DNA of 64,000 nucleotides, taken from IMG/VR virus record IMGVR_UViG_2791355104_000001, one strand, 5' to 3'. The notes beneath the pieces are model-generated. The model was not told the DNA's origin, did not search any database, and was given only the letters and a program-made list of their open reading frames with translations. The position numbers and the translations under genes were made by a program. Positions 41,464-60,358 of this stretch are shown here, piece by piece. Numbering within the stretch: the stretch's first letter is position 1; every line of letters begins with the position of its first letter. This DNA comes from a virus. Taxonomy: Duplodnaviria; Caudoviricetes.

Positions 41464-42042
41464 TTAAGTTCTGATATAGTTTTTATCTAGTGACAAAGTA
41501 ATATATCTCTGTAATAGGAAAGGCTCTTGTCTGTCTCGTAAGTATACCTTAGCTTGAAGTACATACTCACCGTTTGCCAATTCTTTTAAAAGGAATCTAT
41601 TTTGTTTTTGCGATCTAGTTTGTATGGGTTCTTCGTAACTTTTATGCAAGAAATACTCAACGTATTTGACTCTATCCAATGCTCCTTTGTAGTAAGAATC
41701 TACAACAACTCTAATATCGTAATGCGGGATTCCGGTTAAACCAGTTCTTGCTTGAAATTCTGATTGCTTCTCCTCTCGCAGAAAAGAAATGTGGTTCAGA
41801 AAGACGTAGTCTGCAGGAATTTTTTCTGCTTCAATTAGCTCAGTCTGCGCTGGCTGCCCTGCTCCTATGGCAACACTTGCTGGCTCGACAGATAGCTCTA
41901 CATACTCACTAACTTTTAGAGAAAAACCACCCCCTGAATTTTTTGAGTGCATAAAAAGGTTCCATGCGAAGAAAAGCGCAAACCCTATTAAGCAAAATTC
42001 AATGATCTTAAAAACGACTTCAATCACCTGGCTAATTTCCAT
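41464..42042 (-). CDS. TM-anchored prokaryotic YEATS-domain protein
   Basis: N-terminal TM; LDRVKYVEYFLHKSY.EP...NRFLLKELANGEYVLQAKVY. Confidence 0.8.
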   Translation of the reverse strand: MEISQVIEVVFKIIEFCLIGFALFFAWNLFMHSKNSGGGFSLKVSEYVELSVEPASVAIGAGQPAQTELIEAEKIPADYVFLNHISFLREEKQSEFQARTGLTGIPHYDIRVVVDSYYKGALDRVKYVEYFLHKSYEEPIQTRSQKQNRFLLKELANGEYVLQAKVYLRDRQEPFLLQRYITLSLDKNYIRT

Positions 42043-44268: not shown

Positions 44269-44505
44269 ATGAAACAAACGTTACTCACAGCAAAAGAGCT
44301 CTCAGCCCGAATTAAATTTAGTGCCAACTACATCAATGCGGAGCTGCGAGACTCAATTTTCATCGAAGGTAAGCATTACATTCGACCATTCAATGGTAGA
44401 AAAATTCTATACATTTGGGAAGAGGTAGAAGCGTATTTGTATGAAAGTGCAGTTCGCAACGCCACATACATTCCCATGGCATCGGGGAGAGTGTGTCATG
44501 GGTAG
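44269..44505 (+). CDS. Excisionase/AlpA-like protein
   Basis: AAGGAGG RBS; LLTAKELSARI..., EGKHY.RP, wHTH pattern; overlaps int start. Confidence 0.8.
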   Translation: MKQTLLTAKELSARIKFSANYINAELRDSIFIEGKHYIRPFNGRKILYIWEEVEAYLYESAVRNATYIPMASGRVCHG

Positions 44506-45718
44506 CATAAATGTTCGTGAATCCAAGCTCTATCTTGATTTCAGGTACTTAAATACGCGATGTAGAGAGCAAACTGCATTGCCAGATACGCGGGCTAACA
44601 GGAAGAAATTAGAAAAGCTACTTAAGCAAATTGAGTCAGATATCCGCTTAAAATGCTTTGTGTACAGCGATTATTTTCCCGATTCTAAAAAGGCTTCGAA
44701 CTTTGTTAAAGATGATGAACAGGCAAGCCGCATAAAGCGAGCGATGCTGGCTACGTATCAAAAGACGTCCAACGCTCTTCAAGGGCACAATAATAGGGCG
44801 TTTGAGGACTTCGCTCAAGAATGGTTTTCTGAAAACGAAGTACGTTGGAAACAGAGCTACGTCAACAGCATGAGAATTTATGTGTTTTCGTATCTCACTA
44901 AAGAGTTTGCGGGTTTTGATGTTAGCGAAATAGATCGCCCGACTATTTTGAAGTACCGAGCCAAACTGATGCAGCCAAAAGCTGATGGTACTCAACTTTC
45001 GACCGACTTTGTAAATCACATCATGACACCCCTTCGAATGATTTTACGCGAGGCTGCTGACAGGTTTGGTTTCCGCTGCCAATTTGAAAATATTGCGCCG
45101 CTTCGCGTAGACCGGCGAGATGTTAATCCATTTTCACTAGAACAAGTGCTAACGTTTTTGAAAACAGTGCGTGTCGACTTTCGGAATTACTACACAGTGC
45201 GCTTTTTTACTGGCATGAGGACAGCTGAAATTGATGGCTTGATGTGGAAGTACGTTGACTTTGACTTGGGCACGATAAGTATCAGAGAGACATTTGTGCA
45301 AGGTCGAATGGATTCAACCAAAACTCGCGGCTCTATGCGCGACATTCAAATGTCGACATTAGTGAAAGAAGCGCTTCAAAATCAGTTGGAAGTTTCTGGT
45401 GATGGGAAGTTTGTTTTTCCGAACTCCCAAGGCAACCCCCTAGATCATGGCAATGTAAGAGACCGCGTTTGGAAACCAACATTGAAAAAAATCGGAATGG
45501 AATACCGTAGGCCTTATGAAACTCGTCATACCGCTGCAACCTTGTGGCTAGCATCAGGCGAGGCGCCCGAATGGATAGCGCGTCAAATGGGTCACGCAAA
45601 TACAAAAATGCTATTTGAGATTTACAGCCGCTACGTACCAAACCTCACTCGAAGAGATGGTTCTGCGTTCGAGCAACTACTTTCAAACGTTCTATGTGAG
45701 GACAGCCAACACTTATAG
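44498..45718 (+). CDS. int: Tyrosine integrase with N-terminal arm-binding (DUF3596-type) domain
   Basis: LYLDFRY...RCRE.T; FFTGMRTAEI, YETRHT, QMGH, YSRY catalytic motifs. Confidence 0.95.
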   Translation: MGSINVRESKLYLDFRYLNTRCREQTALPDTRANRKKLEKLLKQIESDIRLKCFVYSDYFPDSKKASNFVKDDEQASRIKRAMLATYQKTSNALQGHNNRAFEDFAQEWFSENEVRWKQSYVNSMRIYVFSYLTKEFAGFDVSEIDRPTILKYRAKLMQPKADGTQLSTDFVNHIMTPLRMILREAADRFGFRCQFENIAPLRVDRRDVNPFSLEQVLTFLKTVRVDFRNYYTVRFFTGMRTAEIDGLMWKYVDFDLGTISIRETFVQGRMDSTKTRGSMRDIQMSTLVKEALQNQLEVSGDGKFVFPNSQGNPLDHGNVRDRVWKPTLKKIGMEYRRPYETRHTAATLWLASGEAPEWIARQMGHANTKMLFEIYSRYVPNLTRRDGSAFEQLLSNVLCEDSQHL

Positions 45719-45791
45719 TTTTAGCACTTAGTACACTATGAAGGTGAAATAGGTCGGGGCTTATACTGGTATCAACAGAGAGGGCAGAACG

Positions 45792-46643
45792 ATGAAAATT
45801 AATTCATTGCAGCCAGAGCTTTCAGAAGCGAAAAAGCTTGCTCGTTTTAAAGGTTTTTACTGCATGGCTGGTTTCGTAGTTAGATTTAACGAGCATGGTA
45901 AACCGTATTGGGTGATTACGTTAATGGATGCATTTACCCAGTTTGAGATAGTAGCCACGCAGATTGATTGCAATACAAAACACTTTTCTCACTTTGGCTT
46001 TGTTCACGTTGAAGCGACGAAAGTTAAAACAACCGTTGGCGATATATATGTTGCTGACTTTATCTATGCTGTTGATGAAATTCCAGAAAAGTACAGACAT
46101 ATACGCTTAATTCCTAGAGATGCTTCGGCGAATCATGAAGATGTAACGCGCCTGGTTAAAATAGTAGAGTGCGTTGAGTATGAAGCGTTAAGATGCTTTG
46201 TCGCGCACACTTTGATTCAAAGCCGAATAATGGTGCCATTTCTTCGAAACCCAGCAAGCTTAAATTATCATCATAACTATATTGGTGGCTTGTTAAGACA
46301 CAGCATACGAGTGGCTGAGTTATTTGCGAAAAACATGGTTGGTAGAAAAGAAGAAAAGGCTTTAGGTATTGTTGGAGCGCTTCTTCACGATATAGGTAAA
46401 TCCGTCACATTATCTGAATCTATGATCTACACAGCTACAGGAACAATGGTAAACCATGACTCGTTAACGTTAGAGCTTTGTGCTTCAGCGCTGAAATTAC
46501 TTTCCAAAACAAACCCTAGGTATGCTGATATTTTGCGCCATATCTGGACTTGTGAGAAAGAACAGTTTAGGTATTCCACCAAGCTAAATATCGCTTCTCA
46601 GATTCAACGATTCGATAGAGAAGACTCAAAGGAACATTCATAA
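45792..46643 (+). CDS. OB-fold + HD-domain protein (YhaM/Cbf1-like)
   Basis: HHNYIGGLLRHS and LLHDIGK. Confidence 0.8.
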   Translation: MKINSLQPELSEAKKLARFKGFYCMAGFVVRFNEHGKPYWVITLMDAFTQFEIVATQIDCNTKHFSHFGFVHVEATKVKTTVGDIYVADFIYAVDEIPEKYRHIRLIPRDASANHEDVTRLVKIVECVEYEALRCFVAHTLIQSRIMVPFLRNPASLNYHHNYIGGLLRHSIRVAELFAKNMVGRKEEKALGIVGALLHDIGKSVTLSESMIYTATGTMVNHDSLTLELCASALKLLSKTNPRYADILRHIWTCEKEQFRYSTKLNIASQIQRFDREDSKEHS

Positions 46644-47143: not shown

Positions 47144-47186
47144 CTATGCGTCATTTTTTGCCGCATAGTTGTTTCATGCTTACAAA
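47144..47186 (+). promoter_or_regulatory. 25-bp palindromic operator and promoter of the ftsZ paralog
   Basis: CTATGCGTCATTTTTTGCCGCATAG (47144-47168), 20/25 identical to the WYL-gene operator; contains -35 TTGCCG. Confidence 0.8.
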
Positions 47187-47210
47187 ACATTAGTTTTCAA
47201 AAGTAAGCAC

Positions 47211-48296
47211 ATGCAAAACATTCGAACCGAAAATATTAATATTCACGTTATTGGTGTGGGAGGCTGTGGTGGCAATGCGGTAAGCAACATGGCCAGTCTT
47301 TGCTCACATGAAAATATCAGGTTTAGCTCTGTTAATACTGATATCGCTGCTTTGCATAGGTGTACAAATCATGAAGTGGTATTGATAGGTGAGGCGACAA
47401 CAAAGGGATATGGAGCCGGTGCTGACCCGGATGTAGCTAGTAACGCCGCCATTCAGAGTAAAGATGCCTTAGTCACATTAATAAAAGATGCTGACCTTAT
47501 TATCATTATCGCTGGCCTGGGAGGTGGCACTGGAAGCGGTGCAACGCCAATCTTGATTGATTTAGCCAAAGAGAGTGATATCGATGTGATGTGCTTTGTT
47601 ACGCTTCCTTTCAAAGCTGAGGGAGGCAAGCGAAGCGACATTGCTAGAAACGCGCTTGAGACAATACAAAGCAAAGCTAACGCAACTCTCGTTATGTCTA
47701 ACGATTCATTGCTTTCTGCACTAGATGAAACCGTAGGGCTTCTCTCTGCATTTCGTCATTGTGACACTCAGATGCACAGAATTGTAGAAGCCATTATCGT
47801 AATGCTCACGAACACGGGTTATATCAACGTCGACATTAACGATTTCAGTCACATTCTTTCTTTAGAAGGGGATACTGCGCTAGGTGTGGGTATAGCTGAA
47901 GACGACAGTTCATTAAGCGCAGCATTAAAACATGCTTTGGAAAACCCGTTAGTCGACAAGCAAAACATAATTGGGGCGCAGGGTGTTATTGCGCAGCTTA
48001 CGTGTAGAGAAGAGCCCAGCTTAGCAATGTATGAAGAAATGCTAGCGACACTCCAATCTTTAGTCGATGGCCCTCAAACTCTTATTATTACAGGCGTAAC
48101 CTTATCTCCAGAATTACCACACTTTGGTGAAGTCTTAGTTATCGCCACAGGTGTGCCTTCTAAGGCTCAAAACTTCGAACAAGAGAAAAATGTGATACCC
48201 ATGAAGCAAGCATCTGTGCCGGGCTCATCAAAAAAAGATGCGGCATACTTGGATATACCTGCCTTTGTTAGGCTGCAGGGTAGGGAGTTATCTTAG
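47211..48296 (+). CDS. ftsZ: Island-borne FtsZ paralog
   Basis: GVGGCGGNAV, VNTD, GAGADP, AGLGGGTGSG, PFKAEG..R, T7 loop NVDIND, C-terminal YLDIPAFVR peptide; no dcw-cluster neighbours. Confidence 0.93.
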   Translation: MQNIRTENINIHVIGVGGCGGNAVSNMASLCSHENIRFSSVNTDIAALHRCTNHEVVLIGEATTKGYGAGADPDVASNAAIQSKDALVTLIKDADLIIIIAGLGGGTGSGATPILIDLAKESDIDVMCFVTLPFKAEGGKRSDIARNALETIQSKANATLVMSNDSLLSALDETVGLLSAFRHCDTQMHRIVEAIIVMLTNTGYINVDINDFSHILSLEGDTALGVGIAEDDSSLSAALKHALENPLVDKQNIIGAQGVIAQLTCREEPSLAMYEEMLATLQSLVDGPQTLIITGVTLSPELPHFGEVLVIATGVPSKAQNFEQEKNVIPMKQASVPGSSKKDAAYLDIPAFVRLQGRELS

Positions 48297-49333
48297 TCTG
48301 AAGGCAATCGTCTATCTTGTACTACTTCTTGTTGGTAAGCGAAGAATAACCTTTCAGAAAGCTCAACAAAATACTGACGCAGTTTTTGAGGGGCGATGAC
48401 CTCTATGTTGTCGCCCAAGCCCCTCAAAAACGCTCGTAATTTATTAGTATCTTTAACTGTCGCAGTCAGCAGAGATTTATCAGCCTGAATAGATTGCGTA
48501 ATTACCTGATCGTCACTCAGTCTGTAGCCGTGAAGTAAAAATAGAGATTTATTTTTAACCAATAGCTGAAGCTTAATGTCTTCTTTGTTGTTCGCTGACA
48601 AGGTTTGGATATTTTCCTGTTCACCAAACTCTTGTTGGCAGTCTTCATCTGTTACGGTAACGTTTCTAATAAACTGTAACGGCAACGCATAGCGTCTTTT
48701 GTGCAGCGAACCAAAAGTGCAGACAAAGAGTTGCCGGCCATCTTGTTTAACCAGCCCCATAGGATTAACTCTGTCGTAGTGCTTCCAAACCATTTCGTTT
48801 CCCCCACTAAAAATACGCTTAATATCGGCAGAAATTTGTTTTTTAAAGAAAATTGCACTTTTTAATCGTTCAAACGAAGTCGCATCTATTTCTGGAGGGA
48901 TAAGCGGCTGGGAAACTTGCGAATCCGCCACTGATCTTAGCCAGTTTGTAAGTAAAGAGTCACTATCTTGCTCTAAGACCTGACTCGCTTTTGCAAAGTA
49001 AGGCTGCATTTCTTTAAGTGTAGAATTTGGCAGCGTGGCACCGGACTGTTCAAGCACTTTAAATGCTAGAGCGGTATTTCCATCCATCAAGCTTAAATTG
49101 AGCTTCTTAAAATAAGCGTTTATAAACCAGCCGTAGGGTTTCGAACGCTTATCAACGTCTAACCCAAATAGCCCAATATTTTCTAGGCTGACTAAGTCCC
49201 GCTGCACCGTGCGCATATCGATATTGTGATGGCCACAGTTTTGTAGATTTTCAAAAATTTGGCGGCTTGAAACTTTTCTAGGAGCAGAAGGCACAAATTG
49301 AAGAATGTCGAGCTTGCGTTGAAATGCACTCAT
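48293..49333 (-). CDS. WYL-domain transcriptional regulator (HTH-WYL-WCX)
   Basis: RTVQRDL HTH, SKPYGW, VNPMGLV..DGRQLFVC WYL core, LRAFLRGLGDNIEVIAP.KLR WCX. Confidence 0.92.
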   Translation of the reverse strand: MSAFQRKLDILQFVPSAPRKVSSRQIFENLQNCGHHNIDMRTVQRDLVSLENIGLFGLDVDKRSKPYGWFINAYFKKLNLSLMDGNTALAFKVLEQSGATLPNSTLKEMQPYFAKASQVLEQDSDSLLTNWLRSVADSQVSQPLIPPEIDATSFERLKSAIFFKKQISADIKRIFSGGNEMVWKHYDRVNPMGLVKQDGRQLFVCTFGSLHKRRYALPLQFIRNVTVTDEDCQQEFGEQENIQTLSANNKEDIKLQLLVKNKSLFLLHGYRLSDDQVITQSIQADKSLLTATVKDTNKLRAFLRGLGDNIEVIAPQKLRQYFVELSERLFFAYQQEVVQDRRLPSD

Positions 49334-49365
49334 TAGGGAGAACTGGCTTTTGCAATTATGACTTC

Positions 49366-49407
49366 ACCATAGCATAGGGACGGTATGCGACAAAAATTGT
49401 CGCATAC
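49366..49407 (-). promoter_or_regulatory. Perfect 11-bp inverted-repeat operator and promoter of the WYL gene
   Basis: GTATGCGACAA-AAA-TTGTCGCATAC (49383-49407); minus strand TTGTCG-16-TATGGT with TG extension. Confidence 0.88.
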
Positions 49408-49481: not shown

Positions 49482-49985
49482 TCAATCATCATTTTTAAGA
49501 GCGGATAAGATGGACGCTGGGAACTGTGAGCCAAGCGCATTACTAAGATAAAAAGCAGCGGCAATGGGCATTTCATACAGGTATGACTGTGTGACGTTAT
49601 TTTCTTTGTTAAATAGTAGTGGGGTACACTGTTTGTTGTAATTGAGGATAAAGTCGTCTTTAAATTCTTCCGTGCTTACAGGCGTCTGCAATAAACGAAT
49701 ATTTATATCAATCTTGTTGCCCAAATAATTAGGGTTGGTTGGTTTACGCGTTCCTGGGATTTCACTGTCATACATCGCGGATGTCGCAGTTGCTACGCCT
49801 ACAATGTGCTGTTTGCGGTGCATAAAGACAATATCACCGGGAGAGACTTTTTTAAGCTGCTCCCATCCTGGTCTTTTAAAAGTAATCCCATCTTTACGCA
49901 CACCGAGTTTTGGTGCCCATAAAAAGCTTCCGTCTACGACTTCCTTGTAGCTGCTGTTTACGTTAACCCAAAACACTCTTTTCAT
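49482..49985 (-). CDS. Stand-alone EVE/PUA-like domain protein
   Basis: FWVN..SYKE...FLWAPK, W..LKKVSPGDIVF...IVGVA: resembles modified-DNA-binding N-domains of restriction nucleases. Confidence 0.6.
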   Translation of the reverse strand: MKRVFWVNVNSSYKEVVDGSFLWAPKLGVRKDGITFKRPGWEQLKKVSPGDIVFMHRKQHIVGVATATSAMYDSEIPGTRKPTNPNYLGNKIDINIRLLQTPVSTEEFKDDFILNYNKQCTPLLFNKENNVTQSYLYEMPIAAAFYLSNALGSQFPASILSALKNDD

Positions 49986-50073
49986 CACATTACCTGCTTA
50001 CTTAAAATCAAAGTTCGATTAGCCGACACACGCGGCGATTAATGACAGTTAGTCGGTTCTTTACTGTCTGTTT

Positions 50074-50775
50074 TTAAAAGCCGTCAAAGTCGCTAACGCG
50101 GGCCAAACTATGGCAAAAGTTTGACAATCTGGATGATTCAGATTGAGTCAAATCTGCGGGCAATGCAATGTCAATGGGTGTTTGCGCGTCTAAATAAAAC
50201 GTTAAATCAATTTCGTCTGCGCTCAATTCATCTGGTTCATCGTCTTCAGACATAACCGCAGAGTTTATTAAGTCAGAAAGTCTTCTTGCTTGCGATTCGG
50301 TAAATTTAAAAGGCAACTCGATATTGAAATCATAGTGACGCCTTAAAAGGAGAGAATGGCTGTACCAGTCGTTGTCATGCACATCGTCGGTTTCAACAGT
50401 CGGCTCTGGTGATGTTTCGGCTTGCACGTCACGATACGAATCTTCTTGGCTTTGGTTGTCGGGGTAAAGTGCTATCTCAGCTAAATCCAGCATGTCGTAA
50501 AAAAACTTAAATCTTGCTACATTGCTCCGCGAGCCTTTAATGCGTTTACCGCAGTTGCATCCTTCTAGTTTGCCAAGCGCTTTCCAAAGTGAGCGGTTAG
50601 TGGGCTCATTGTAAAGTCCTCTGGCATTCATGTATTTGGCAATATTCTTTAGCGTGATTTCAGAGCGATTCGTTTGGTATTGCTCTGATAGCGTTGTAAA
50701 AAAGTTATGCAAAATAGATTCTTCTGCGACGATACACTGTAAAAGTTCTTTGTTTAGATTGGGATAATCTGACAT
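50074..50775 (-). CDS. Hypothetical protein with duplicated C-terminal motif
   Basis: IELPFKFTESQARRL and IALPADLTQSESSRL; GGAG RBS before ATG 50775. Confidence 0.7.
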   Translation of the reverse strand: MSDYPNLNKELLQCIVAEESILHNFFTTLSEQYQTNRSEITLKNIAKYMNARGLYNEPTNRSLWKALGKLEGCNCGKRIKGSRSNVARFKFFYDMLDLAEIALYPDNQSQEDSYRDVQAETSPEPTVETDDVHDNDWYSHSLLLRRHYDFNIELPFKFTESQARRLSDLINSAVMSEDDEPDELSADEIDLTFYLDAQTPIDIALPADLTQSESSRLSNFCHSLARVSDFDGF

Positions 50776-50792
50776 GGTTGTCTCCAACTTAA

Positions 50793-51443
50793 TTAATCTT
50801 CAGCGCTAACGAAATTTCTTAATGCATCCAACCCATCGTCGTTGTTTTCATCAACGGTGAGTTCGTCAGTAATTAACTTAACATCGTAGATCTCGCATAA
50901 GAATTGGTGCCAAGTACTTGCTGTGTAAGCTTCGAACTTCTCGGGTACATCTTCATCTGCATTTATTTCATTTGCATAGGCATTAATAACCTCATCTACC
51001 CAAAATGGAACACGTACAATAGTCTCAAAGCTATCTTTGAAAATCGTGGCCATAGGAGCAATCTCTAACTTGCTTGTTTGCTTGTTGAGTGCGCCAACTC
51101 GATTGGATATTTGACGTTCGTTGATTTTGAGTTTCTTTTCCTCATACCAGTGTTTGATATCTGAAAAGCTTGCATAGGAATACACATCCTCACGTTGAGC
51201 GTACTCTTTGGCTGTACTCAAAACCGCGACAATTAGCAAAATTCCATGCTGATTAAATTGTTTCATCGCGTTCACGATTTTTTGCTTTTTCTTATCGTCA
51301 TCAATATTGAGACTCACTGAAGTAGCTTGCGATACAGAGTTCTCTGCTGGTAAAGCCGATGTATTGAAAACTTTCTGATAAAAGAGGGCGACCTCATCAG
51401 CATCGCCAGTGACTTCGATAGTCATTTTTGCGGTTATTGCCAC
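50793..51443 (-). CDS. Hypothetical protein
   Basis: 216-aa ORF, GGAG RBS before GTG. Confidence 0.7.
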   Translation of the reverse strand: MAITAKMTIEVTGDADEVALFYQKVFNTSALPAENSVSQATSVSLNIDDDKKKQKIVNAMKQFNQHGILLIVAVLSTAKEYAQREDVYSYASFSDIKHWYEEKKLKINERQISNRVGALNKQTSKLEIAPMATIFKDSFETIVRVPFWVDEVINAYANEINADEDVPEKFEAYTASTWHQFLCEIYDVKLITDELTVDENNDDGLDALRNFVSAED

Positions 51444-51681
51444 GTAATTAGACTCCTTTGTTCCACGTATTTGTTTAACGAAGTTTACGTAGGTGAATAT
51501 ACACTAAAAGCACAATTTTTGATACATATTTGAATTCAATTTTGGATGTTTTATTGTGTTTAGTTTCGCTGTGTGAAATTATAAACCAAACTGGTAGGTG
51601 GGCTGCGACCTTTAAACTGGTGGTTACACAAAGGTGTGTCAATTGAGTTGGTAATTGAGTTGCATTTTGAAAGCGGCTGTT

Positions 51682-52287
51682 CTATAAAACTCTAAACTCA
51701 CCAAGCCATTTTTTTCTGATTACGAAAATATCTTCTGACGTAAAGTTATACGGTTTCGATGGCCCAGGGTTTCTAGAGCTGTCAATAGTAAGCTCGTAAA
51801 GTGGAATGATACTTTTTTCGTTATCGGAATCGAGCATATGTAAGCCTTTGTCAGAAACGTTCTTAACAACTGACCAATGGCCCCCTGTCTGATGGTCGTA
51901 GCCGACAATGCAAACACAGTTTTTTGCGTTATCGGCTTGAGCTATCTGCTCAAGTACTTGTTTTCTATTGCGCGACGTGTCGTTTAACCAATATGGAATA
52001 GAAAAGTCAAATTCATAGAGTTCTTGAGTTTTATCATGGTACATATCGAAATGGGAATTAAGGTAGTCTAGCACTCGGCTTAGCGTATTCTTTATGGTCC
52101 CTCGTCTAGTACCATTAAAATAACTCATATAATCGCCATCTCTTAGGAATGCGGCCAGTACTTGACTAAAAAGTTCAGGCTTATCAAGGCTGGGCTCAAG
52201 TGCGTGGATAGCGTTAACAATGGCATAGAAGCCGCAGGCACCATCTAGCTCTCCTTGCTTGGCTGGTTTTATTCTTTGTAAGCTCAT
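51682..52287 (-). CDS. Papain-like (C39-type) cysteine peptidase
   Basis: QGELDGACG (Q, C), GGHWSVV (H), LDSD (D). Confidence 0.7.
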   Translation of the reverse strand: MSLQRIKPAKQGELDGACGFYAIVNAIHALEPSLDKPELFSQVLAAFLRDGDYMSYFNGTRRGTIKNTLSRVLDYLNSHFDMYHDKTQELYEFDFSIPYWLNDTSRNRKQVLEQIAQADNAKNCVCIVGYDHQTGGHWSVVKNVSDKGLHMLDSDNEKSIIPLYELTIDSSRNPGPSKPYNFTSEDIFVIRKKWLGEFRVL

Positions 52288-52549: not shown

Positions 52550-55500
52550 ATGACGGACTATAGTAAAGCGAGACAGAGCTTAGTTAGCTGGGTAAAAGAT
52601 ACACTAACGGGCAATGTTTTGAAGGATAACACCTTATGGGAGTCTAATCCTTTTAATTGCTATACAACCGGAATTCTCTACCCAGTGGGTACAGTTTATG
52701 AATCAGATGACGATGAGCAGTCTGAAGATGAAGACAGTGAAGCCTCAATGGCAAGCGGTGCTAAAAGAGTCCGCTATCAACCCCCATCTTCTATGGGCTT
52801 TTCTTTTTATGTAGATCAAACAACTCAATCAATCCGTGTTTTTTATAGCGGTTTCTCCTTTACTAAAGCTGGAAAACAAAACAACCGTCAGGCGTGGGAG
52901 AAAAATTCACTGGTCCCTGATGAGGGAGAAGAAATAGAGATAGCCCTAGCTGAATCTTCACGCTTCACTGTAATGAACTCAAGAGCCCTTGTAAATGTAA
53001 AGATAAGGCCCCACGGAACAGGAAAAATAGTCACTGTTTCATTGAGCAATATCAGCTCCCAACCAAAGGAAGAAAAAGAATCGGAAAGAGATGCGACAGC
53101 GAAAAATTCGATTTTTCAAGCTGAGCTTAAGTGTTTCATAAGTAGTGATTCTCTCAAAGATTACCCTAGGGTTAGCCATGCATTACTGAGTGAAGAAGAG
53201 CAAGAGTTAGAGCTACGTTATAAAGATGAACGCGTATATGCAATTGGTCATGGTGTTGCAGTAGATTGGCGAGTAGGGGAGAAAACGACAGAGTTTTTTA
53301 GTGACTTCATGCCAACCGTCGAAGTTCCACAGGTTACTGCCAACGCAGGTAAAGCTAACAAAGTACTAAGCTTTTCATTCTTAGAGTCTATCGAGTCTGA
53401 TAGGTCGGTTTTTAACCAGTTGAGCGACTTTATCGATAACTACGAAGACTGGATAGATAGTCAAATTGAATCAGCAGAAACAGGAACAAGTGAAGAGGTA
53501 AAGGTCGCTAAGCGCATTGTTGAGCGTATGGAAGAAGCTAAACAGCGTATGAGAAGCGGTGTATCGAGATTACGTAACGATGACTACGCTCAAAAAGCAT
53601 TTGCGCAAGCAAATAAAGCAATGCTTATGCAAATGGAGCTAAATGGCCCACCAAAGAATGGCGAACCTTATTCGTGGCGGCCATTCCAGTTAGCATTTGT
53701 TTTGTTAGCGCTTGAGTCCTCCATTGATGAAGATAATGACTTTAGAGACTGTGTTGACTTGATATGGTTTCCAACCGGTGGGGGAAAGACTGAAGCATAC
53801 TTAGGCGTCATGGCGTTGGTTTTTGTTTACCGTCGTCTCAGGTACAAAAATAGCGGTGGAGGCACTGCCGCTATTATGCGCTACACGTTGCGATTACTAA
53901 CATCACAACAATTCATTCGCGCATGTAAAGTAGTATCTGCTTTAGAAATTATGCGAACAGAGTCAGGTGAGTTAGGCGAAGAGCCTTTTAGTGTAGGTCT
54001 TTGGCTTGGCAGTGCTTCATCACCGAATACCTTCAAGCAATCTTTAGAAGTTCTAGATAATCGGAACTATAGCAAGTTTGTTCTACAGGAATGCCCGTGG
54101 TGCTCTACACCATTCTCACATGATAATTTCAGCATTTCAGAAAGCAGCTTCTCATTTAAGTGTCACCACAAAGGTTGCGAATTAGCCAACGCTACAGGAA
54201 ATACTCTTCCTTTCAAAGTGGTCGATGAAGCGCTGTATGCTTCACCGCCAACCCTCCTTATTGCAACGGTAGACAAGTTTGCTCGACTACCTTGGGAAGA
54301 CAGAGCTGTTTCCTTTTTTGGCGGAGCAATAAATAGGCCGCCAGAATTAGTAATTCAGGATGAGCTACATCTTATTTCTGGGGCGCTCGGGTCTATAGTA
54401 GGTTTATATGAAGTTGGTTTTGAAACCATCTTGGTATCGCGAGGTGTTTATCCAAAATTCATAGCCTCTACAGCGACAATCAGACAAGCCAAAGAACAGG
54501 TGCAAGCCTTATTCGGAAGGGAGAAGTCGGCTGTGTTTCCTCCTGTAGGAATTAGGCAGAAGGATTCTTATTTTGCAAAAGAAGTTCCCATAGCAGAAAA
54601 GCCTGGAAGGCTTTACGTGGGATATATGGCATTCGGGCAAACGCGCACTAGCTGTCTTGAGCATCTGGCTGCTGCACTTGTATCAGCACCTAACGCCTGC
54701 TTTGAAGATCCTGAACTTAAAGACGCATGGTGGACCCAAATGGTCTATCACGGCAGCTTAAAAGGCGTGGGAAACAGCAGGACGAACTTTCAAAGTGGTG
54801 TACCAAAAGTTCAAAGTAGCATGTTGTTCAACGAATTTATGAAGCAACTTGAGCAAACAGATCTCTCTGCTGCGAATAGCTTAAGACATGATAAGGGCGC
54901 CAGAAGTAGCGCGTTTTTTAACGGTGTAGTTCCAAAAACTTTGCTAGGCAATAAAGACAATGTGGAGCTCTTTCAACGATTCTTTCCCGCTAGGCAGTTG
55001 AGGGTGAAGTCGTTGACTAGCAACCAAACAGCAGAAGAGAATGCTCAAGTTTTCCAAGATCTCAAAGCAAGTTATGAAAACAAAGCACATTCTATAGATT
55101 CTGTATTAGCTACAAATATGGTGTCGGTAGGCTTAGATGAACCAAGGCTAGCGTTAATGGTAATAAATGGCCAGCCTTTGACGACAGCCGAATATATTCA
55201 GGCCAGCAGTCGCGTAGGTAGAGGCAATACACCAGGAATTGTTTTCACAAACTATTATAAAACCCAAGCCCGAAGTCTCTCTCATTATGAAAATTTTAGG
55301 GCTTACCATAAGTCGTTTTATCGTTATGTAGAGCCATCAAGCATTACTCCTTTTACACATCAAGTTAGAAAAAGAGCACTTCATGCGTCTTTAGTATCGG
55401 CATTTCGACATGCCGAAGGTGGCTTACTAAAAAACTCTGATGCGCAAGAACTTACTTATGATAACCCCTTAACACAAAAAATTATTCGATTGATGAAAAC

Positions 55501-55774
55501 TAGAATTAAAAGTGCATTAGTGGGGGATAAAACCGAAACAAAACTATTGTTGGAAGAGTGCGAGGAGCACATCGCTCGTCTTATTCGCGAATGGGATAAA
55601 GAGGCATCTTCAGCAACGAACTTAAGATACCTCGCTAAGGACAAGTCTGCTGAAAGTTTATTGGTGTCTTTTGATGATGCTAAAACCAAAACTGGGCTTT
55701 GGGAGACGTTAAACTCCATGAGAAATGTAGAAAAAACAGGTCTCTTTGAGGTGGATGGGGGGCTTGATTTTTGA
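52550..55774 (+). CDS. drmA: DrmA-like SF2 helicase
   Basis: WFPTGGGKTEAYLG, TVDKFA, QDELHLISG, ATNMVSVGLD, EYIQASSRVGR. Confidence 0.9.
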   Translation: MTDYSKARQSLVSWVKDTLTGNVLKDNTLWESNPFNCYTTGILYPVGTVYESDDDEQSEDEDSEASMASGAKRVRYQPPSSMGFSFYVDQTTQSIRVFYSGFSFTKAGKQNNRQAWEKNSLVPDEGEEIEIALAESSRFTVMNSRALVNVKIRPHGTGKIVTVSLSNISSQPKEEKESERDATAKNSIFQAELKCFISSDSLKDYPRVSHALLSEEEQELELRYKDERVYAIGHGVAVDWRVGEKTTEFFSDFMPTVEVPQVTANAGKANKVLSFSFLESIESDRSVFNQLSDFIDNYEDWIDSQIESAETGTSEEVKVAKRIVERMEEAKQRMRSGVSRLRNDDYAQKAFAQANKAMLMQMELNGPPKNGEPYSWRPFQLAFVLLALESSIDEDNDFRDCVDLIWFPTGGGKTEAYLGVMALVFVYRRLRYKNSGGGTAAIMRYTLRLLTSQQFIRACKVVSALEIMRTESGELGEEPFSVGLWLGSASSPNTFKQSLEVLDNRNYSKFVLQECPWCSTPFSHDNFSISESSFSFKCHHKGCELANATGNTLPFKVVDEALYASPPTLLIATVDKFARLPWEDRAVSFFGGAINRPPELVIQDELHLISGALGSIVGLYEVGFETILVSRGVYPKFIASTATIRQAKEQVQALFGREKSAVFPPVGIRQKDSYFAKEVPIAEKPGRLYVGYMAFGQTRTSCLEHLAAALVSAPNACFEDPELKDAWWTQMVYHGSLKGVGNSRTNFQSGVPKVQSSMLFNEFMKQLEQTDLSAANSLRHDKGARSSAFFNGVVPKTLLGNKDNVELFQRFFPARQLRVKSLTSNQTAEENAQVFQDLKASYENKAHSIDSVLATNMVSVGLDEPRLALMVINGQPLTTAEYIQASSRVGRGNTPGIVFTNYYKTQARSLSHYENFRAYHKSFYRYVEPSSITPFTHQVRKRALHASLVSAFRHAEGGLLKNSDAQELTYDNPLTQKIIRLMKTRIKSALVGDKTETKLLLEECEEHIARLIREWDKEASSATNLRYLAKDKSAESLLVSFDDAKTKTGLWETLNSMRNVEKTGLFEVDGGLDF

Positions 55775-57615
55775 AAAGCAAACAATGGTTTACGCCTGTA
55801 AGGTTTTCTCACCTGACAGGGCACGCTGGTGTAGGTTCAATTGTAAGAGATCAAAATGACTATCTACTGTTTGTTAAAGACACATCGACTTGGCCTATAA
55901 AAAATTTAACCAAACTTCACGCGGTTGAAAGAGTAAAACGACATCTGGAAGTATCCAGCAATTTAGTGTTGCCGCCTGAGGCATCGATTGATGAGACCGC
56001 CAACCTAAGGATCTCTGGTGGCGCGATTCCTACAGTACGTTTTCCGAACTGGGCTTTATGTAATTTATGCAACACATTGCATCTCGCACCTTGGAAGAAT
56101 AGCAGTGTTGAAATAAGCCAAAAGCTGAAATGCCCGACGTGTAACAAAGGAACACTGAGTCAGGTGACATGGTGTGCTGTAAGTAGTTATGGTGATTTAA
56201 TTGATGTTCCTTGGCATAAACTCAGTCACCGTAATCCAAAAAACGATGCTCAAACACATTGTCGTTCCAGCTCGAACGAGAGTTACCTAAAGCTAGAGCT
56301 TAATGAAAGAGGGCGATGGGAAGTTCAGTGCAAGAAGTGTGGTGCCAAGAATTCGTTAGAGATGACGGATTTTCAAAGAAATGTACACAAACAGCCTGGT
56401 TATCGTGAACGAAAATCGTTAAATGGCGAGGTGGTTACGTATACCGTTATGGAAGTAAACGATCCACGAGTATTTTCGTCAGTTAGCGAAAGGGCGTTAG
56501 TAATACCGCCAGAGTCAAATATTGACAAAACGTCGTTATTTTTTAGATTAACTCAGCAATCACAGCTGGTTGCTGGCATTAAAGACGCAAAAAGGCCATT
56601 GCAGAAAAAACGAGAAGTTAAGAAAGCGATGAGGGAGCTTAAGTGTTCAGAGGAAGAGCTATTTAGTGCATTGGAAGAAATCGACAGAGGTGATTTAAAG
56701 GATGCAGTAGATTTTAGCAACATTACACCCGATGACATGATGTTTGATGAATTCGAGGCGCTAACTACAATCCAAAAATTCAATAGAAACGCTGACTTTA
56801 TAACCTCTCATTTAACTAGCGAATGGTCTGACTATCTAGGTTCACTGAGTGAAAGCGGTGATATCAGGCCAGAGATAAACGTTATCGACAAGTTAATTGC
56901 CGTAAACCGCCTTAGGGTTATTGAGGTTTATAAAGGTTTTCAACGAGCAGCTAGCGACGCAGAAGATTTTGACCCCACACCAATAGTAGCTCCAGATTTT
57001 ACCGGTAACCTTGACTGGCTACCGGCGATAGAGCTTTTTGGCGAGGGCATGTTTTTCACGCTTAATAATGAAATTATTGAAAAGTGGGAGCAACACCCTC
57101 TCATCAGACAGCGAGCTTTAGAAATAGAAACAAGATATCAAGATTCTGAAATAATATTGCCGGATGAGGCTATCCCCACCCCTAGGTTCATTCTTCTGCA
57201 TACGCTAGCACATGCACTTGTAAGAGAGCTAGAGTCCATAGCGGGCTACCCTGCAGCGTCTTTACAAGAACGAGTTTATAGTTCTGCAGAGAAAAAAATG
57301 GCCGGGGTCCTTATCTACACTGCCGTACCTGACATTGCTGGGTCGCTTGGAGGCATAATCGAGCAGGCAAAACCACGTCGATTTATCAAATTATTGGATT
57401 CTGCATTCAAGCAGCTTGAATGGTGCTCGATGGACCCTGTGTGTGGAGACATGGAAGGGCAAGGGCCTTCTTGGTTAAATCGCGCAGCCTGTCATGGCTG
57501 TGTCCTTTTACCTGACACTTCATGTAGTTACAACAATGTATTTCTAGATAGAGTTTTCATTAAAGGTAAGCCAGATGAAGGTATACCGTCACTGAAGGAG
57601 TTTGTGAAAAAATAA
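55771..57615 (+). CDS. drmB: DrmB-like DUF1998 protein
   Basis: LHTLAHAL, CSMDPVC, AACHGC..LP.TSC..N..LDR cysteine cluster. Confidence 0.9.
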   Translation: MKSKQWFTPVRFSHLTGHAGVGSIVRDQNDYLLFVKDTSTWPIKNLTKLHAVERVKRHLEVSSNLVLPPEASIDETANLRISGGAIPTVRFPNWALCNLCNTLHLAPWKNSSVEISQKLKCPTCNKGTLSQVTWCAVSSYGDLIDVPWHKLSHRNPKNDAQTHCRSSSNESYLKLELNERGRWEVQCKKCGAKNSLEMTDFQRNVHKQPGYRERKSLNGEVVTYTVMEVNDPRVFSSVSERALVIPPESNIDKTSLFFRLTQQSQLVAGIKDAKRPLQKKREVKKAMRELKCSEEELFSALEEIDRGDLKDAVDFSNITPDDMMFDEFEALTTIQKFNRNADFITSHLTSEWSDYLGSLSESGDIRPEINVIDKLIAVNRLRVIEVYKGFQRAASDAEDFDPTPIVAPDFTGNLDWLPAIELFGEGMFFTLNNEIIEKWEQHPLIRQRALEIETRYQDSEIILPDEAIPTPRFILLHTLAHALVRELESIAGYPAASLQERVYSSAEKKMAGVLIYTAVPDIAGSLGGIIEQAKPRRFIKLLDSAFKQLEWCSMDPVCGDMEGQGPSWLNRAACHGCVLLPDTSCSYNNVFLDRVFIKGKPDEGIPSLKEFVKK

Positions 57616-58820
57616 TGGCAGCACGTGTTTTTGAGTTACCCAAAGAGCATGAATTAACAAAAGACCAGAGAATGGCTATTCGACTACCTGCAGATGGGCA
57701 ATATTTGATTGTTGGTGCTCCTGGTACAGGAAAGTCTGTTGTCGCACTTATGCGCCTTAAAAAATACGCGGCAACAAATGAAACGCTATTCTTGTCGTAC
57801 AACCATGTACTCAATCATGCAAATAAAGTACTAGCCGGGCCTGATGAAAACTTTCATATGAATACTGCGATGTCTTGGCTTTATGATTTTCAATACAAAG
57901 CAGCGGGTGGCTCGCAGGCAAATTTTGAACAAGCCAAGATGCCTGAAATTGAAAATCGCAAACCTGATTATGATGCGTTGATTAATCGTTTTGAAGAGCT
58001 AGGCGCATCGTGCACATCAACGAACTTTATTATTGATGAAGGTCAGGATTTACCGCCAGAATGGTACGAAGCAGTCGAGGCACTTAATGTTGAAAATTTC
58101 TTTATTGTTGCCGATCAAAATCAGCAGATTACCGAACAGAACTCATCGCAGTCAGATTTACTTGATGCTTTGGGTCTAGAAAAAGACGACGTAATTCACC
58201 TAAAAGAAAATTGGCGAAACACCACGCCAATTTCTGCCTTTGCTAATTATTTTTATACTGACAAATCAAGTGAAAAGCCAGCGCTTCCGAAAAAACCATC
58301 GGCTCACGTTCCTATCTTGTATGAATACAAGATGCTAGGTAGCGCAAAAGAGCTAATTTTAAGTTCCTATGATAACGACCCCTCAAAGCTGATAGGTTTA
58401 TTTGTTGCTAACGAAGGTAAAAGAGAACATTGGGCAAAATATCTTAAAAATGATAACAAACAAAGACGGGAAGCATCTCCCGTAGTAAGTACCTATTACT
58501 CTAATCAAAAAGGTTCGGTAAACATCGATTTCTCTCAAGGGGGGATTGTTGTTTTAAATGATAAGTCTGTGAAAGGTATAGAGTTTGATGAAGTGTTTAT
58601 TATCATTGACGGTTTTAAAGCAATAGGTAGTGACATCGAGTCGTTAATGAAGCGAATGTATGTCATGGCGTCGCGTGCTCGCGACAGGTTGTTTTTACTA
58701 AAAAGTGAAGTCCAAGAAAGTTTATTTGAAGACATTCTTCCACCCGTAGGCGAAACAATTGAAATTGAGCGAAATGGCCACGTTGAAAAACATGAACTCC
58801 TCAAGAGAATTAAAATATGA
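57615..58820 (+). CDS. Compact SF1 (UvrD-like) ATPase/helicase
   Basis: GAPGTGKS, IIDEGQD, ENWRNT, KGIEFD, SRARDRL. Confidence 0.85.
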   Translation: MAARVFELPKEHELTKDQRMAIRLPADGQYLIVGAPGTGKSVVALMRLKKYAATNETLFLSYNHVLNHANKVLAGPDENFHMNTAMSWLYDFQYKAAGGSQANFEQAKMPEIENRKPDYDALINRFEELGASCTSTNFIIDEGQDLPPEWYEAVEALNVENFFIVADQNQQITEQNSSQSDLLDALGLEKDDVIHLKENWRNTTPISAFANYFYTDKSSEKPALPKKPSAHVPILYEYKMLGSAKELILSSYDNDPSKLIGLFVANEGKREHWAKYLKNDNKQRREASPVVSTYYSNQKGSVNIDFSQGGIVVLNDKSVKGIEFDEVFIIIDGFKAIGSDIESLMKRMYVMASRARDRLFLLKSEVQESLFEDILPPVGETIEIERNGHVEKHELLKRIKI

Positions 58821-60355: not shown

Positions 60356-60358
60356 AAT

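Follow-up and report, generated by a model that had tools for sequence, protein, structure and literature searches.

The WYL-domain regulator and the FtsZ paralog encoded convergently in a 64,000-nucleotide stretch of DNA (the window; IMG/VR record IMGVR_UViG_2791355104_000001) form a real regulatory circuit and a single unit, which is a mobile two-gene cassette of marine Alteromonas-type bacteria. This accessory FtsZ module probably changes how the cell divides once stray single-stranded DNA (ssDNA) is present. The account judged fairly likely is that a WYL activator, itself turned on by ssDNA and under positive autoregulation, induces an accessory FtsZ, which in turn interacts with the host divisome.

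The features of the module are collected in Table 1. A preliminary description of the window had reported two 25-bp palindromes with 20/25 identical bases, each followed 8 nt downstream by the sequence ATGCT, and a pair of overlapping stop codons. Both palindromes exist as described and agree at 20 of their 25 positions, ATGCT begins 8 nt past each, and the TAG of the ftsZ paralog (48294-48296) overlaps the TAA of the WYL gene (48293-48295, minus strand). A degenerate pattern built from the shared bases has two matches in the window, which are the two boxes themselves (0.02 expected). When the same pattern is run over the whole 4.31-Mb genome, it again returns only these two sites, and the reversed control pattern gives 0 matches. 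Scored with a position weight matrix (PWM), the box in the WYL promoter reaches 31.3 bits, the top of all sites scanned, and the box in the paralog promoter reaches 24.6 bits, where the background does not exceed 6.8. The own-promoter box is consistently the stronger of the two, a pattern shared with driD and didA of Caulobacter. The box consensus is identical to the CGAC-N7-GTCG site with an AT-rich centre that is used by DriD and DdaA (PMC13004042, PMC13010146), and its presence in the promoter of the WYL regulator itself is as expected of activators of the DriD/DdaA type.

Table 1. Positions of the module's genes, boxes and predicted promoter elements in the window
Feature	Position	Strand	Description
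WYL box, promoter of the ftsZ paralog	47144..47168	+	Imperfect palindrome; CGTC 47149-47152, AT-rich N7, GCCG 47160-47163
Predicted -10 hexamer CATGCT, paralog promoter	47175..47180	+	11 nt past the box core
Accessory FtsZ paralog, 361 aa	47211..48296	+	GTPase motifs intact, short linker, C-terminal YLDIPAF-type peptide
DriD/DdaA-like WYL regulator, 346 aa	48293..49333	-	wHTH, three-helix bundle, WYL, WCX
Predicted -10 hexamer TATGCT, WYL promoter	49371..49376	-	11 nt past the box core
WYL box, regulator's own promoter	49383..49407	-	Perfect 11-3-11 palindrome, core CGAC-N7-GTCG

The two genes are closely linked across genomes. The WYL subfamily is present in 21 of 401 genomes of the family, 20 of which also carry the paralog, with the two genes adjacent in 19; within the Alteromonadaceae the subfamily occurs almost only beside the paralog clade, in convergent or tandem arrangement. 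The paralog itself is accessory and is found in 32 of the 401 species genomes (8%). A scan anchored on the WYL gene across 185k species genomes recovered a convergent paralog for 15 of 16 close WYL relatives, along with 15 Pseudoalteromonas loci in which WYL gene, box and paralog follow one another in tandem. More remotely, one contig each from Geobacter and Flavobacteriales carries a similar WYL-box-FtsZ-like(-DUF2779) arrangement. The box stands upstream of the paralog at all 21 WYL-linked loci (13.6-29.1 bits) and at none of the 13 WYL-less loci, where scores do not exceed 1.2 bits and thus stay below the background maximum. A nested clade of 10 species and two or three further species keep the paralog without WYL gene or box, so the paralog has a use that is independent of the WYL regulator. 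Both genes are under purifying selection, with a dN/dS of 0.04-0.10 for the paralog. Parts of both genes are found at 90-99% identity on metatranscriptome contigs from three studies, and one isolate transcriptome contained nothing for either gene. The metatranscriptome contigs weigh neither way, because a contig does not reveal how strongly, from which strand or from where a gene is transcribed.

The promoters that carry the box share one layout. A hexamer of the form TAnnnT or CATGCT lies at the same position in 21 of 21 WYL-linked paralog promoters, and exactly 11 nt separate the box core from the hexamer in 35 of 35 boxed promoters (21 of the paralog and 14 of the WYL gene, the latter being all convergent WYL promoters with a box). 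The second-position A and sixth-position T of the hexamer are kept in all 35, and the bases between box and hexamer are variable. The conserved ATGCT is accordingly assigned, from this pattern of conservation, to a predicted -10 element, and the -10 positions would place the transcription starts near 47187 for the paralog and near 49364 for the WYL gene. The earlier proposal that TTGTCG and TTGCCG in the right half-sites are the -35 elements has to be given up. This TTGNCG sequence is unusable as a -35 because merely 11 nt separate the half-site from the conserved -10, which is the sole conserved hexamer, and a sigma-70 scan of both intergenic regions finds no canonical -35/-10 pair. Instead, the -35 position is covered by the box, whose spacing to the -10 is constant (35/35 boxed promoters), and a true -35 is lacking. 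DriD boxes likewise overlap the -35 position of promoters that lack a -35 and stand at a fixed distance from the -10 (PMC13004042); in the didA and driD oligonucleotides printed in that paper, the distance, by our own reading, is 11 nt before CAAGGT and CAATCT, respectively. Since the box occupies the -35 position as it does in DriD-dependent promoters, its anatomy points to activation rather than to simple operator repression. Promoter anatomy and fold ranking together suggest that this activation would follow ligand binding. What does stand from the earlier proposal is a shared operator within a shared promoter layout, given that linkage, box and box-to-(-10) spacing are kept across genera and in two gene arrangements.

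The regulator had been placed among the WYL proteins that sense nucleic acids, in the company of BrxR and CapW as well as DriD and PafBC. The class holds and the kinship with BrxR and CapW does not, since the fold is nearest to the activators DriD and PafBC. Pfam finds the WCX domain and PADLOC the WYL domain, and the secondary structure of an AF2 model of moderate confidence (pLDDT 72, pTM 0.30) fits the order wHTH, three-helix bundle, WYL (Sm-like) and WCX. A Foldseek search with this model gives E-values of 3e-12 for DriD (8tp8, full length), 1.5e-10 for PafBC and about 1e-5 for CapW/BrxR, which amounts to E-values 10^6-10^7 times better for DriD/PafBC than for CapW/BrxR. Sequence identity to DriD is about 15%. 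A search of the PDB with the single WYL sequence returned noise only; with a profile of 13 sequences, the top five matches are all DriD, although they are weak (E 0.014-0.05) and the alignment is confined to the WCX domain. Residues R41, Q44 and R45 of the recognition helix and S64-K65 of the wing (within RSKP) are invariant among 13 orthologues. DriD reads bases with R37/E40/R41 and has T61/K62 in its wing (PMC10853764); the correspondence of R41/Q44/R45 to R37/E40/R41 is one of motif spacing rather than superposition and involves a change from Glu to Gln. Invariant positions of the WYL domain are R173, W183, H211, Y215 and a basic K-R-R run, to be set beside the ssDNA-pocket residues of DriD (Y168, R176/R178, Y192, R204/R207, Y240 and R288) with the proviso that the profile alignment to DriD reached the WCX domain only. 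From sequence and model, the regulator is thus classed as DriD/DdaA-like and not BrxR/CapW-like.

This classification bears on the possibility that the protein is a repressor in the style of BrxR/CapW, in which case ligand binding would release the boxes and the paralog would be derepressed. Such a repressor would share the WYL-WCX sensor architecture and the association with accessory islands seen here, and CapW also binds ssDNA (title of PDB entry 9c5g). The box covers the promoter core, and a box that overlaps a promoter also suits a repressor; moreover, a WYL regulator next to defence genes is often a repressor (PMC13004042), and the window is an island rich in such genes, DrmA/DrmB and BrxL among them. 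However, promoters without any -35 should be weak unaided, their geometry is that of DriD-activated promoters, the DNA box is of the DriD/DdaA type and the fold match to CapW/BrxR is far weaker. BrxR and CapW repress multi-gene defence operons and are placed directly upstream of a BREX or CBASS operon, a placement that the WYL gene does not have: the window's single BREX gene, brxL, lies 12.7 kb off, beyond other operons, and orthologous pairs travel in other genomes without BREX or CBASS nearby. Repression is for these reasons considered unlikely.

A second alternative is compatible with a WYL activator and differs in purpose only. The module would be an anti-phage system, in which phage ssDNA intermediates trigger the WYL protein and the FtsZ either blocks division, as an abortive or dormancy-type defence, or forms filaments that disturb the phage. 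Its distribution is patchy and shaped by horizontal transfer, it is located in variable regions, and the paralog sits in an integrase-flanked island, with the module lying between the integrase and DISARM-like and BREX genes. In P. donghaensis the module adjoins McrBC. When four genes on each side were surveyed at 17 loci with Pfam and PADLOC, a few neighbours proved to be type I R-M, GmrSD/SspE-like or HEC-06 genes, but most are ordinary (MCP/PAS, two-component and nitroreductase genes), so a consistent defence context is absent and enrichment in defence islands was rejected. The paralog has no PADLOC match. Its clade has no match in 50,697 phage records, where the best hits are generic FtsZ proteins at 30-34% identity, and no relative of the WYL regulator was found on IMG/VR contigs; on these grounds a phage origin of the module was rejected too. 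With mixed neighbourhoods, and with no copy of the module found on phage or viral contigs, the anti-phage reading gains little support; literature searches found no FtsZ-based defence, and the reading is regarded as doubtful. The same searches agree with the initial remark that no description of such a system was known, with DriD-DidA and DdaA-AciT as close functional precedents.

The effector is a complete FtsZ. Its most likely start, judged from the sequence, is the ATG at 47211; the TTG at 47169 is disfavoured because it falls inside the promoter. The protein matches Tubulin (PF00091, 1.3e-35) and FtsZ_C (PF12327, 1e-11) in Pfam, and its identity to the host FtsZ is only 27%. Conservation bears out what had been noted at the outset about its GTP-binding motifs, T7 loop and YLDIPAF tail: the T1 loop (G15-N22), the GGGTG(S/T)G signature (G104-G110) and T7 residues N206/D208/D211 (N-x-D-x-x-D) are invariant in 18 paralogs and the host FtsZ. 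The YLDIPAF-type C-terminal peptide is common to the window paralog and the host FtsZ, and every paralog has its core, (D/N/E)-(I/V)-P-x-x-x-R, in which P350 and R354 never vary. The peptide is conserved clade-wide as a putative FtsA/ZipA-docking tail (DIPA-x-x-R). In a quick PMSF tree with SH-aLRT support, the paralogs form a monophyletic clade apart from canonical FtsZ. The canonical ftsZ, with ftsA adjoining, is about 495 kb away, and the paralog lies outside the dcw cluster. The host genome has FtsA, ZipA and LexA, and no SulA Pfam match was found in it.

Given that none of its GTPase or polymerisation motifs is lost and that it keeps the membrane-anchor peptide, the paralog could be a stand-in that keeps or restarts division when the host FtsZ is inhibited or degraded under stress or attack. 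Its divergent core could escape inhibitors aimed at the host FtsZ, and the WYL-less clade keeps the paralog near housekeeping genes. Against this, an ssDNA or damage signal normally means stopping division rather than promoting it, the known targets of DriD and DdaA are inhibitors, the linker is short and a link to the dcw cluster is absent, which makes a stand-in role quite improbable. A further reading, in which the palindromes mark the ends of a mobile cassette or serve in its recombination and are not operators, is scarcely credible: strain homology does stop just outside the boxes (47134; 49404/5, metatranscriptome contigs), flanks are unrelated, and the two sites are inverted relative to each other at the cassette ends, but in tandem loci the only box is the one separating WYL from ftsZ, divergent genes at the Flavobacteriales locus share one box between them, and the box keeps a fixed distance to the -10 and matches a known WYL DNA site.

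Of the preferred reading, an ssDNA-activated WYL switch for an accessory FtsZ, the data establish that the two genes are linked, that the boxes are conserved, how the promoters are laid out, to which fold class the regulator belongs and that the FtsZ motifs are intact. A WYL homodimer would bind the CGAC-N7-GTCG boxes over the -35 position of two -10-only promoters. Once ssDNA arising from DNA damage, phage or other incoming DNA loads the WYL/WCX pocket, RNA polymerase would be recruited, with first firing at the perfect box of the WYL gene itself (positive autoregulation) and later firing at the promoter of the convergent ftsZ paralog, where both box and -10 are weaker. The protein then made is predicted to be a polymerisation- and GTPase-competent FtsZ, whose C-terminal peptide would contact the host anchors FtsA and ZipA and possibly the host FtsZ, and which may perturb or arrest the Z-ring for as long as ssDNA is signalling. 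It would then be a functional analogue of SulA, DidA and AciT. ssDNA as the signal, activation in place of repression and division inhibition as the output are the parts of this scheme that we infer. Several points speak against it: the WYL model is of moderate confidence and the profile matches to DriD are weak, an overlapping box would serve a repressor as well, some species keep the paralog without WYL gene or box, a full, catalytically intact FtsZ is an elaborate route to a mere inhibitor, and the module, at 8% of the species sampled, is accessory, unlike core checkpoints.

Among the closest known systems is DriD-didA of Caulobacter crescentus (PMC9186387, PMC10853764, PMC13004042). It shares the homodimeric wHTH-3HB-WYL-WCX regulator, the CGAC-N7-GTCG box with an AT-rich centre, the placement of that box where a -35 would lie, with constant spacing to the -10, in promoters that have no -35, the combination of a perfect box in the regulator's own promoter with an imperfect one at the target, and a target that acts on cell division. 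Unlike the full FtsZ paralog, DidA is a small membrane protein, and DriD, a master regulator encoded on the chromosome, has several targets, whereas the WYL regulator described here has only two genome sites and belongs to a mobile pair with a single target. DdaA-aciT of Acinetobacter (PMC13010146) provides a gammaproteobacterial WYL activator with the same box; DdaA is induced by DNA damage and incoming DNA and drives a division inhibitor in a genus without SulA. In contrast to the present pair, the target AciT is small and anchored in the membrane, recA and further repair genes are also under DdaA control, and the aciT box stands about 160 bp upstream and not at the -35 position. DriD and DdaA thus both drive division inhibitors (PMC9186387, PMC13010146). 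LexA-SulA also couples a damage signal to FtsZ-directed division control, but it does so by repressor-cleavage logic, and SulA is a small FtsZ-binding inhibitor without homology to FtsZ. Additional tubulin/FtsZ-fold GTPases beside an essential FtsZ are known as TubZ/PhuZ of plasmids and phages and, reportedly, as truncated FtsZ paralogs of Hyphomicrobiales (bioRxiv 10.1101/2025.09.29.679267). Compared with these duplicates, the present clade differs in that it keeps the anchor peptide, is accessory and carried on islands, is coupled to a sensor of the ssDNA type and was not found on phages.

More broadly, it is possible, though tentative, that DriD-type ssDNA sensors have repeatedly been wired to FtsZ-family proteins with a divisome-docking peptide, giving mobile cytoskeletal checkpoint or immunity cassettes that would commandeer or disable the host Z-ring in the presence of foreign or damaged DNA. 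The basis for repeated wiring is the two-gene module of the Alteromonadaceae together with the independent Geobacter and Flavobacteriales contigs. If true, no earlier case would be known of a tubulin-fold polymer serving as the inducible effector of a DNA-damage or anti-invader response.

ssDNA-sensing WYL activators have only recently been recognised as SOS-independent division controllers, in DriD-DidA and DdaA-AciT, and their known effectors are small membrane proteins. In the present module the effector is a complete FtsZ, with intact motifs and a putative FtsA/ZipA-docking tail, and sensor and effector come together as one transferable unit. Precise sites for testing are already given by the two boxes, the two predicted -10 elements and R41/Q44/R45. 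If the proposed circuit is confirmed, it would offer a natural, genetically simple system for the interaction of a second FtsZ with the resident Z-ring. It would also open the questions of how mobile elements manipulate host division and how far the DriD-type promoter architecture, with a box in place of the -35 and 11 nt from the -10, reaches across the Proteobacteria.

The genome that carries the window is 4.31 Mb long and forms a single contig. Within the window, a gene for a WYL regulator and a gene for an accessory FtsZ paralog converge, and their open reading frames (ORFs) have two stop-codon bases in common, as the overlap first noted implies. The 25-bp palindromes originally quoted from the two promoters (boxes, putative WYL operators) are both found and are identical at 20/25 positions. 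Allowing up to 2 mismatches, the pattern of bases they share matches these two sites and no others in the window (0.02 expected), and again only these two in the whole genome, where a reversed-pattern control gives 0 matches. The observation is thus real, and comparison among genomes strongly supports a regulatory link between the two genes. In related strains, metatranscriptome contigs depart from the window directly outside both boxes (47134; 49404-49405), so the conserved cassette extends from box to box; one alternative takes the boxes simply as cassette ends. No terminator-like structure was found between the overlapping 3' ends, and convergent transcription may therefore, speculatively, add mutual damping.

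Features of the window, remote loci and paralog alignment discussed in the text
Feature	Location	Strand	Details
Protein with prokaryotic YEATS domain	41464-42042	-	192 aa
Tyrosine integrase and HD-domain protein	44441-46643	+	Arm-DNA-bind_2 + Phage_integrase; immediately left of module
Box, paralog promoter	47144-47168
FtsZ paralog	47211-48296	+	361 aa; Pfam Tubulin/FtsZ GTPase and FtsZ_C domains
WYL regulator	48293-49333	-	346 aa; WCX domain; WYL by PADLOC
Box, WYL promoter	49383-49407
Four co-directional ORFs	49482-52287	-	168, 237, 216, 201 aa; directly upstream of WYL promoter
DISARM-like operon	52550-61930	+	DrmA-like (PADLOC 3e-192), DrmB-like (4e-61), UvrD-like helicase, 512-aa unknown, NERD-helicase
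BrxL (BREX Lon-like)	62028-63941	-	At window edge
Remote WYL locus L142	3940-8610		Uncultured Geobacter MAG contig CALABV010000139.1
Remote WYL locus L121	1-3213		Flavobacteriales MAG contig JBBSDD010000411.1
Linker motif D-(D/E)-E-L-S-F-(I/V)	Columns ~400-420 of paralog alignment A2		Loci L005, L018, L019, L024-L027, L034

The pairing of the two genes is conserved and reciprocal. In a search anchored on the paralog, WYL is the convergent next gene downstream in 15 of the sampled genomes, precedes the paralog in the same direction in four (WYL about 30% identical) and lies 14 kb away in one. Strong WYL orthologues (at least 315 bits) occur in 21/401 genomes, 20 of which also carry the paralog; in the sole exception WYL sits on a 3.5-kb contig. 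A scan of 185k species genomes anchored on WYL recovers 16 loci with a WYL at least 43% identical, 15 of them with a convergent paralog and one being the case with 14 kb between the genes. The same scan yields 15 Pseudoalteromonas loci in which WYL, box and paralog are arranged in tandem; P. donghaensis is an annotated example, on the second replicon and adjoining McrBC. The paralog occurs without this WYL in 12 sampled genomes, ten of them in one nested clade (SH-aLRT 99) that is most simply explained by one loss of the regulator and whose conserved upstream sequence suggests a different, lineage-specific paralog promoter. In this clade (L039:7705-9745 in genome G365 and its relatives) the paralog adjoins a HicB-like antitoxin gene and biotin-synthesis genes. 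Decay of the module is visible in some genomes (loci L017:2532-3560 in G015, L036 in G007 and L064 in G155): one WYL has an in-frame TGA, one genome retains a WYL remnant with five TAA stops, and one paralog with an in-frame TAG also has the weakest box (13.6 bits).

The box follows the regulator. A symmetric weight matrix built from sites in the loci detects it ahead of the paralog in each of the 21 distinct WYL-linked loci with upstream DNA available (13.6-29.1 bits) and in 0/13 WYL-less loci (best score at most 1.2 bits); the top score among 3000 random 240-nt windows is 6.8 bits. Fourteen of 16 convergent WYL genes have a box in their own promoter (18-31 bits), and tandem WYL genes have none of their own, their single box lying between WYL and paralog. 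The outer bases of the palindrome differ among species yet remain complementary. In Alteromonas the box of the WYL promoter is perfectly palindromic (28.8-31.3 bits); that of the paralog is degenerate (20.5-26.9 bits), with the weaker CATGCT after it.

In every boxed promoter (21 paralog, 14 WYL), exactly 11 nt of variable sequence separate the 3' GNCG of the box from a hexamer in which position 2 is A and position 6 is T (TATGCT, TATGAT, TACACT, TAAGCT and others, with CATGCT in Alteromonas paralogs). The ATGCT reported downstream of the box in the preliminary description is real and conserved, but this fixed spacing in 35 promoters reassigns it as part of the -10. The TTGNCG of the right half-site, read there as the -35, is too close to the conserved hexamer to act as one. 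Canonical 17-nt spacing places the -35 position on the AT-rich centre of the box, where no base matches TTGACA, and neither intergenic region contains a sigma-70 pair by consensus scan.

The regulator most resembles DriD. Its AF2 model, moderate in quality (mean pLDDT 72, pTM 0.30), contains, in order, a wHTH (~1-71), a helical bundle (85-138), a beta-rich WYL domain (165-231) and a WCX domain (252-341). Foldseek matches the model to DriD (E 3e-12), PafBC (1.5e-10), CapW (3e-5) and BrxR (7e-5), and the top five PDB matches of a 13-sequence WYL profile, all weak (E 0.014-0.05), are DriD entries. DriD binds ATACGAC-N7-GTCGTAT and DdaA binds CGAC-N7-GTCG (PMC13004042, PMC13010146), and the boxes in the window read CGAC-N7-GTCG and CGTC-N7-GCCG. 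The CG core is recognised in DriD by R37/E40/R41, and the wing residues T61/K62 touch phosphates (PMC10853764); the WYL orthologues here keep R41/Q44/R45 invariant and have an RSKP wing. DriD boxes lie over the -35 position, at a fixed distance to the -10, in promoters without a -35; as read here, the DriD oligos have 11 nt from box to CAAGGT (didA) and to CAATCT (driD side), hexamers located 17 nt downstream of an engineered optimal -35 (PMC13004042). The DriD-didA hierarchy, with a perfect site in the regulator's own promoter and a CGTC...GGCG-type site at didA (PMC10853764), is the same as the strong own-promoter box over a weaker target box found here.

By sequence, the paralogs group as an accessory FtsZ clade of their own. 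The top protein matches carry the name Alteromonas mediterranea, and matches fall into two bands, with about 50 clusters at E <= 1e-67 (Alteromonas, Thalassotalea, Colwellia, Cognaticolwellia and one Vibrio) and generic FtsZ from about 1e-52. Of 401 species genomes of the family, 32 encode the paralog, spread over 12/59 genera; within the host's genus, 5/19 other species have it. A quick ML tree recovers the clade as monophyletic (SH-aLRT 100), on a long branch apart from canonical FtsZ, including that of the host, to which the paralog is 27% identical. The canonical ftsZ and adjoining ftsA lie ~495 kb from the paralog in the same genome, which also encodes ZipA and LexA and gives no Pfam match for SulA; a back-up FtsZ is another alternative reading. 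The T1 loop, the GGGTG(S/T)G signature, the T7 N-x-D-x-x-D and further residues that contact the nucleotide are invariant across 18 aligned paralogs and host FtsZ, and the paralog T1 loop holds a clade-specific Cys. Behind a short linker, all aligned paralogs have a C-terminal (D/N/E)-(I/V)-P-x-x-x-R core in which P350 and R354 never vary; the YLDIPAF-type peptide initially noted is present, and host FtsZ ends likewise. Using unsaturated dS only, dN/dS values span 0.04-0.10 in the paralog and 0.015-0.14 in WYL.

Shortly N-terminal of this peptide, non-Alteromonas paralogs have a second conserved, acidic linker motif, in place of which Alteromonas paralogs have V-I-P-M-K. The most divergent paralog (37% identity), from Vibrio chaetopteri (CP183056.1, L006:1-17185), has neither WYL nor box, and its neighbours (PIF1/TOTE-type helicase, Ser/Thr kinase, PP2C and FHA genes) look like a conflict-system neighbourhood.

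Among the remote DriD-like WYL genes from the scan, some have a box of the same type in their own promoter and most have no FtsZ nearby. A link to FtsZ is seen in two contigs, each single and from a metagenome bin. In the Geobacter contig, WYL has a box in its own promoter; next come a second box, 11 nt, CATAGT and an operon encoding a small acidic protein, two FtsZ-like proteins, DUF6915 and an MraZ-like protein, and the locus has a DUF2779/RNase_H-like gene on its upstream side. The first FtsZ-like protein keeps the signature motif, contains NIPAFLRK as an internal peptide and has a T7 loop that is degenerate, the second has a degenerate signature and a T7-like motif, and the two appear complementary in retained motifs. 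In the Flavobacteriales contig, WYL is divergent from an FtsZ-like gene, with a DUF2779 gene next; one CGAC-N7-GACG box lies between the divergent genes, and on each strand a -10-like hexamer follows at 11 nt. These two single contigs suggest more than one origin for the WYL-FtsZ theme.

The pair in the window lies 1.4 kb downstream of the integrase gene and upstream of the four unknown genes, the DrmA/DrmB-containing helicase operon and brxL. The four ORFs have no Pfam or PADLOC match, no methylase or DrmC is found among the scanned ORFs, and no tRNA gene is found within the window; the remaining BREX operon would lie beyond the window edge. Flanks of the module in other genomes are unrelated to these. 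Since neighbours across 17 loci are mainly ordinary genes, with occasional restriction-type genes, and the module is absent from the phage genomes and viral contigs searched, a dedicated role against phage, though possible, is not indicated.

In the proposed mechanism, ssDNA would occupy the WYL/WCX pocket of the regulator, by family analogy, and the freed wHTH dimer would bind the boxes and bring in RNA polymerase. The strong own box would give positive autoregulation, raising WYL until the weaker paralog promoter fires; a repressor model is the alternative. DriD and DdaA induce the division inhibitors DidA and AciT, respectively, and by analogy the induced paralog is expected to act on division; it would do so through its conserved docking peptide, given host FtsA and ZipA, and perhaps through mixed assembly with host FtsZ. 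The regulatory wiring is the one supported part of this model; what triggers it, whether WYL activates or represses, and what the paralog does are inferences. Literature searches found no account of a WYL-FtsZ paralog system, and the preliminary description knew of none. The module is best filed with DriD/DdaA-type ssDNA-responsive division-control circuits, among which its effector would be unprecedented.
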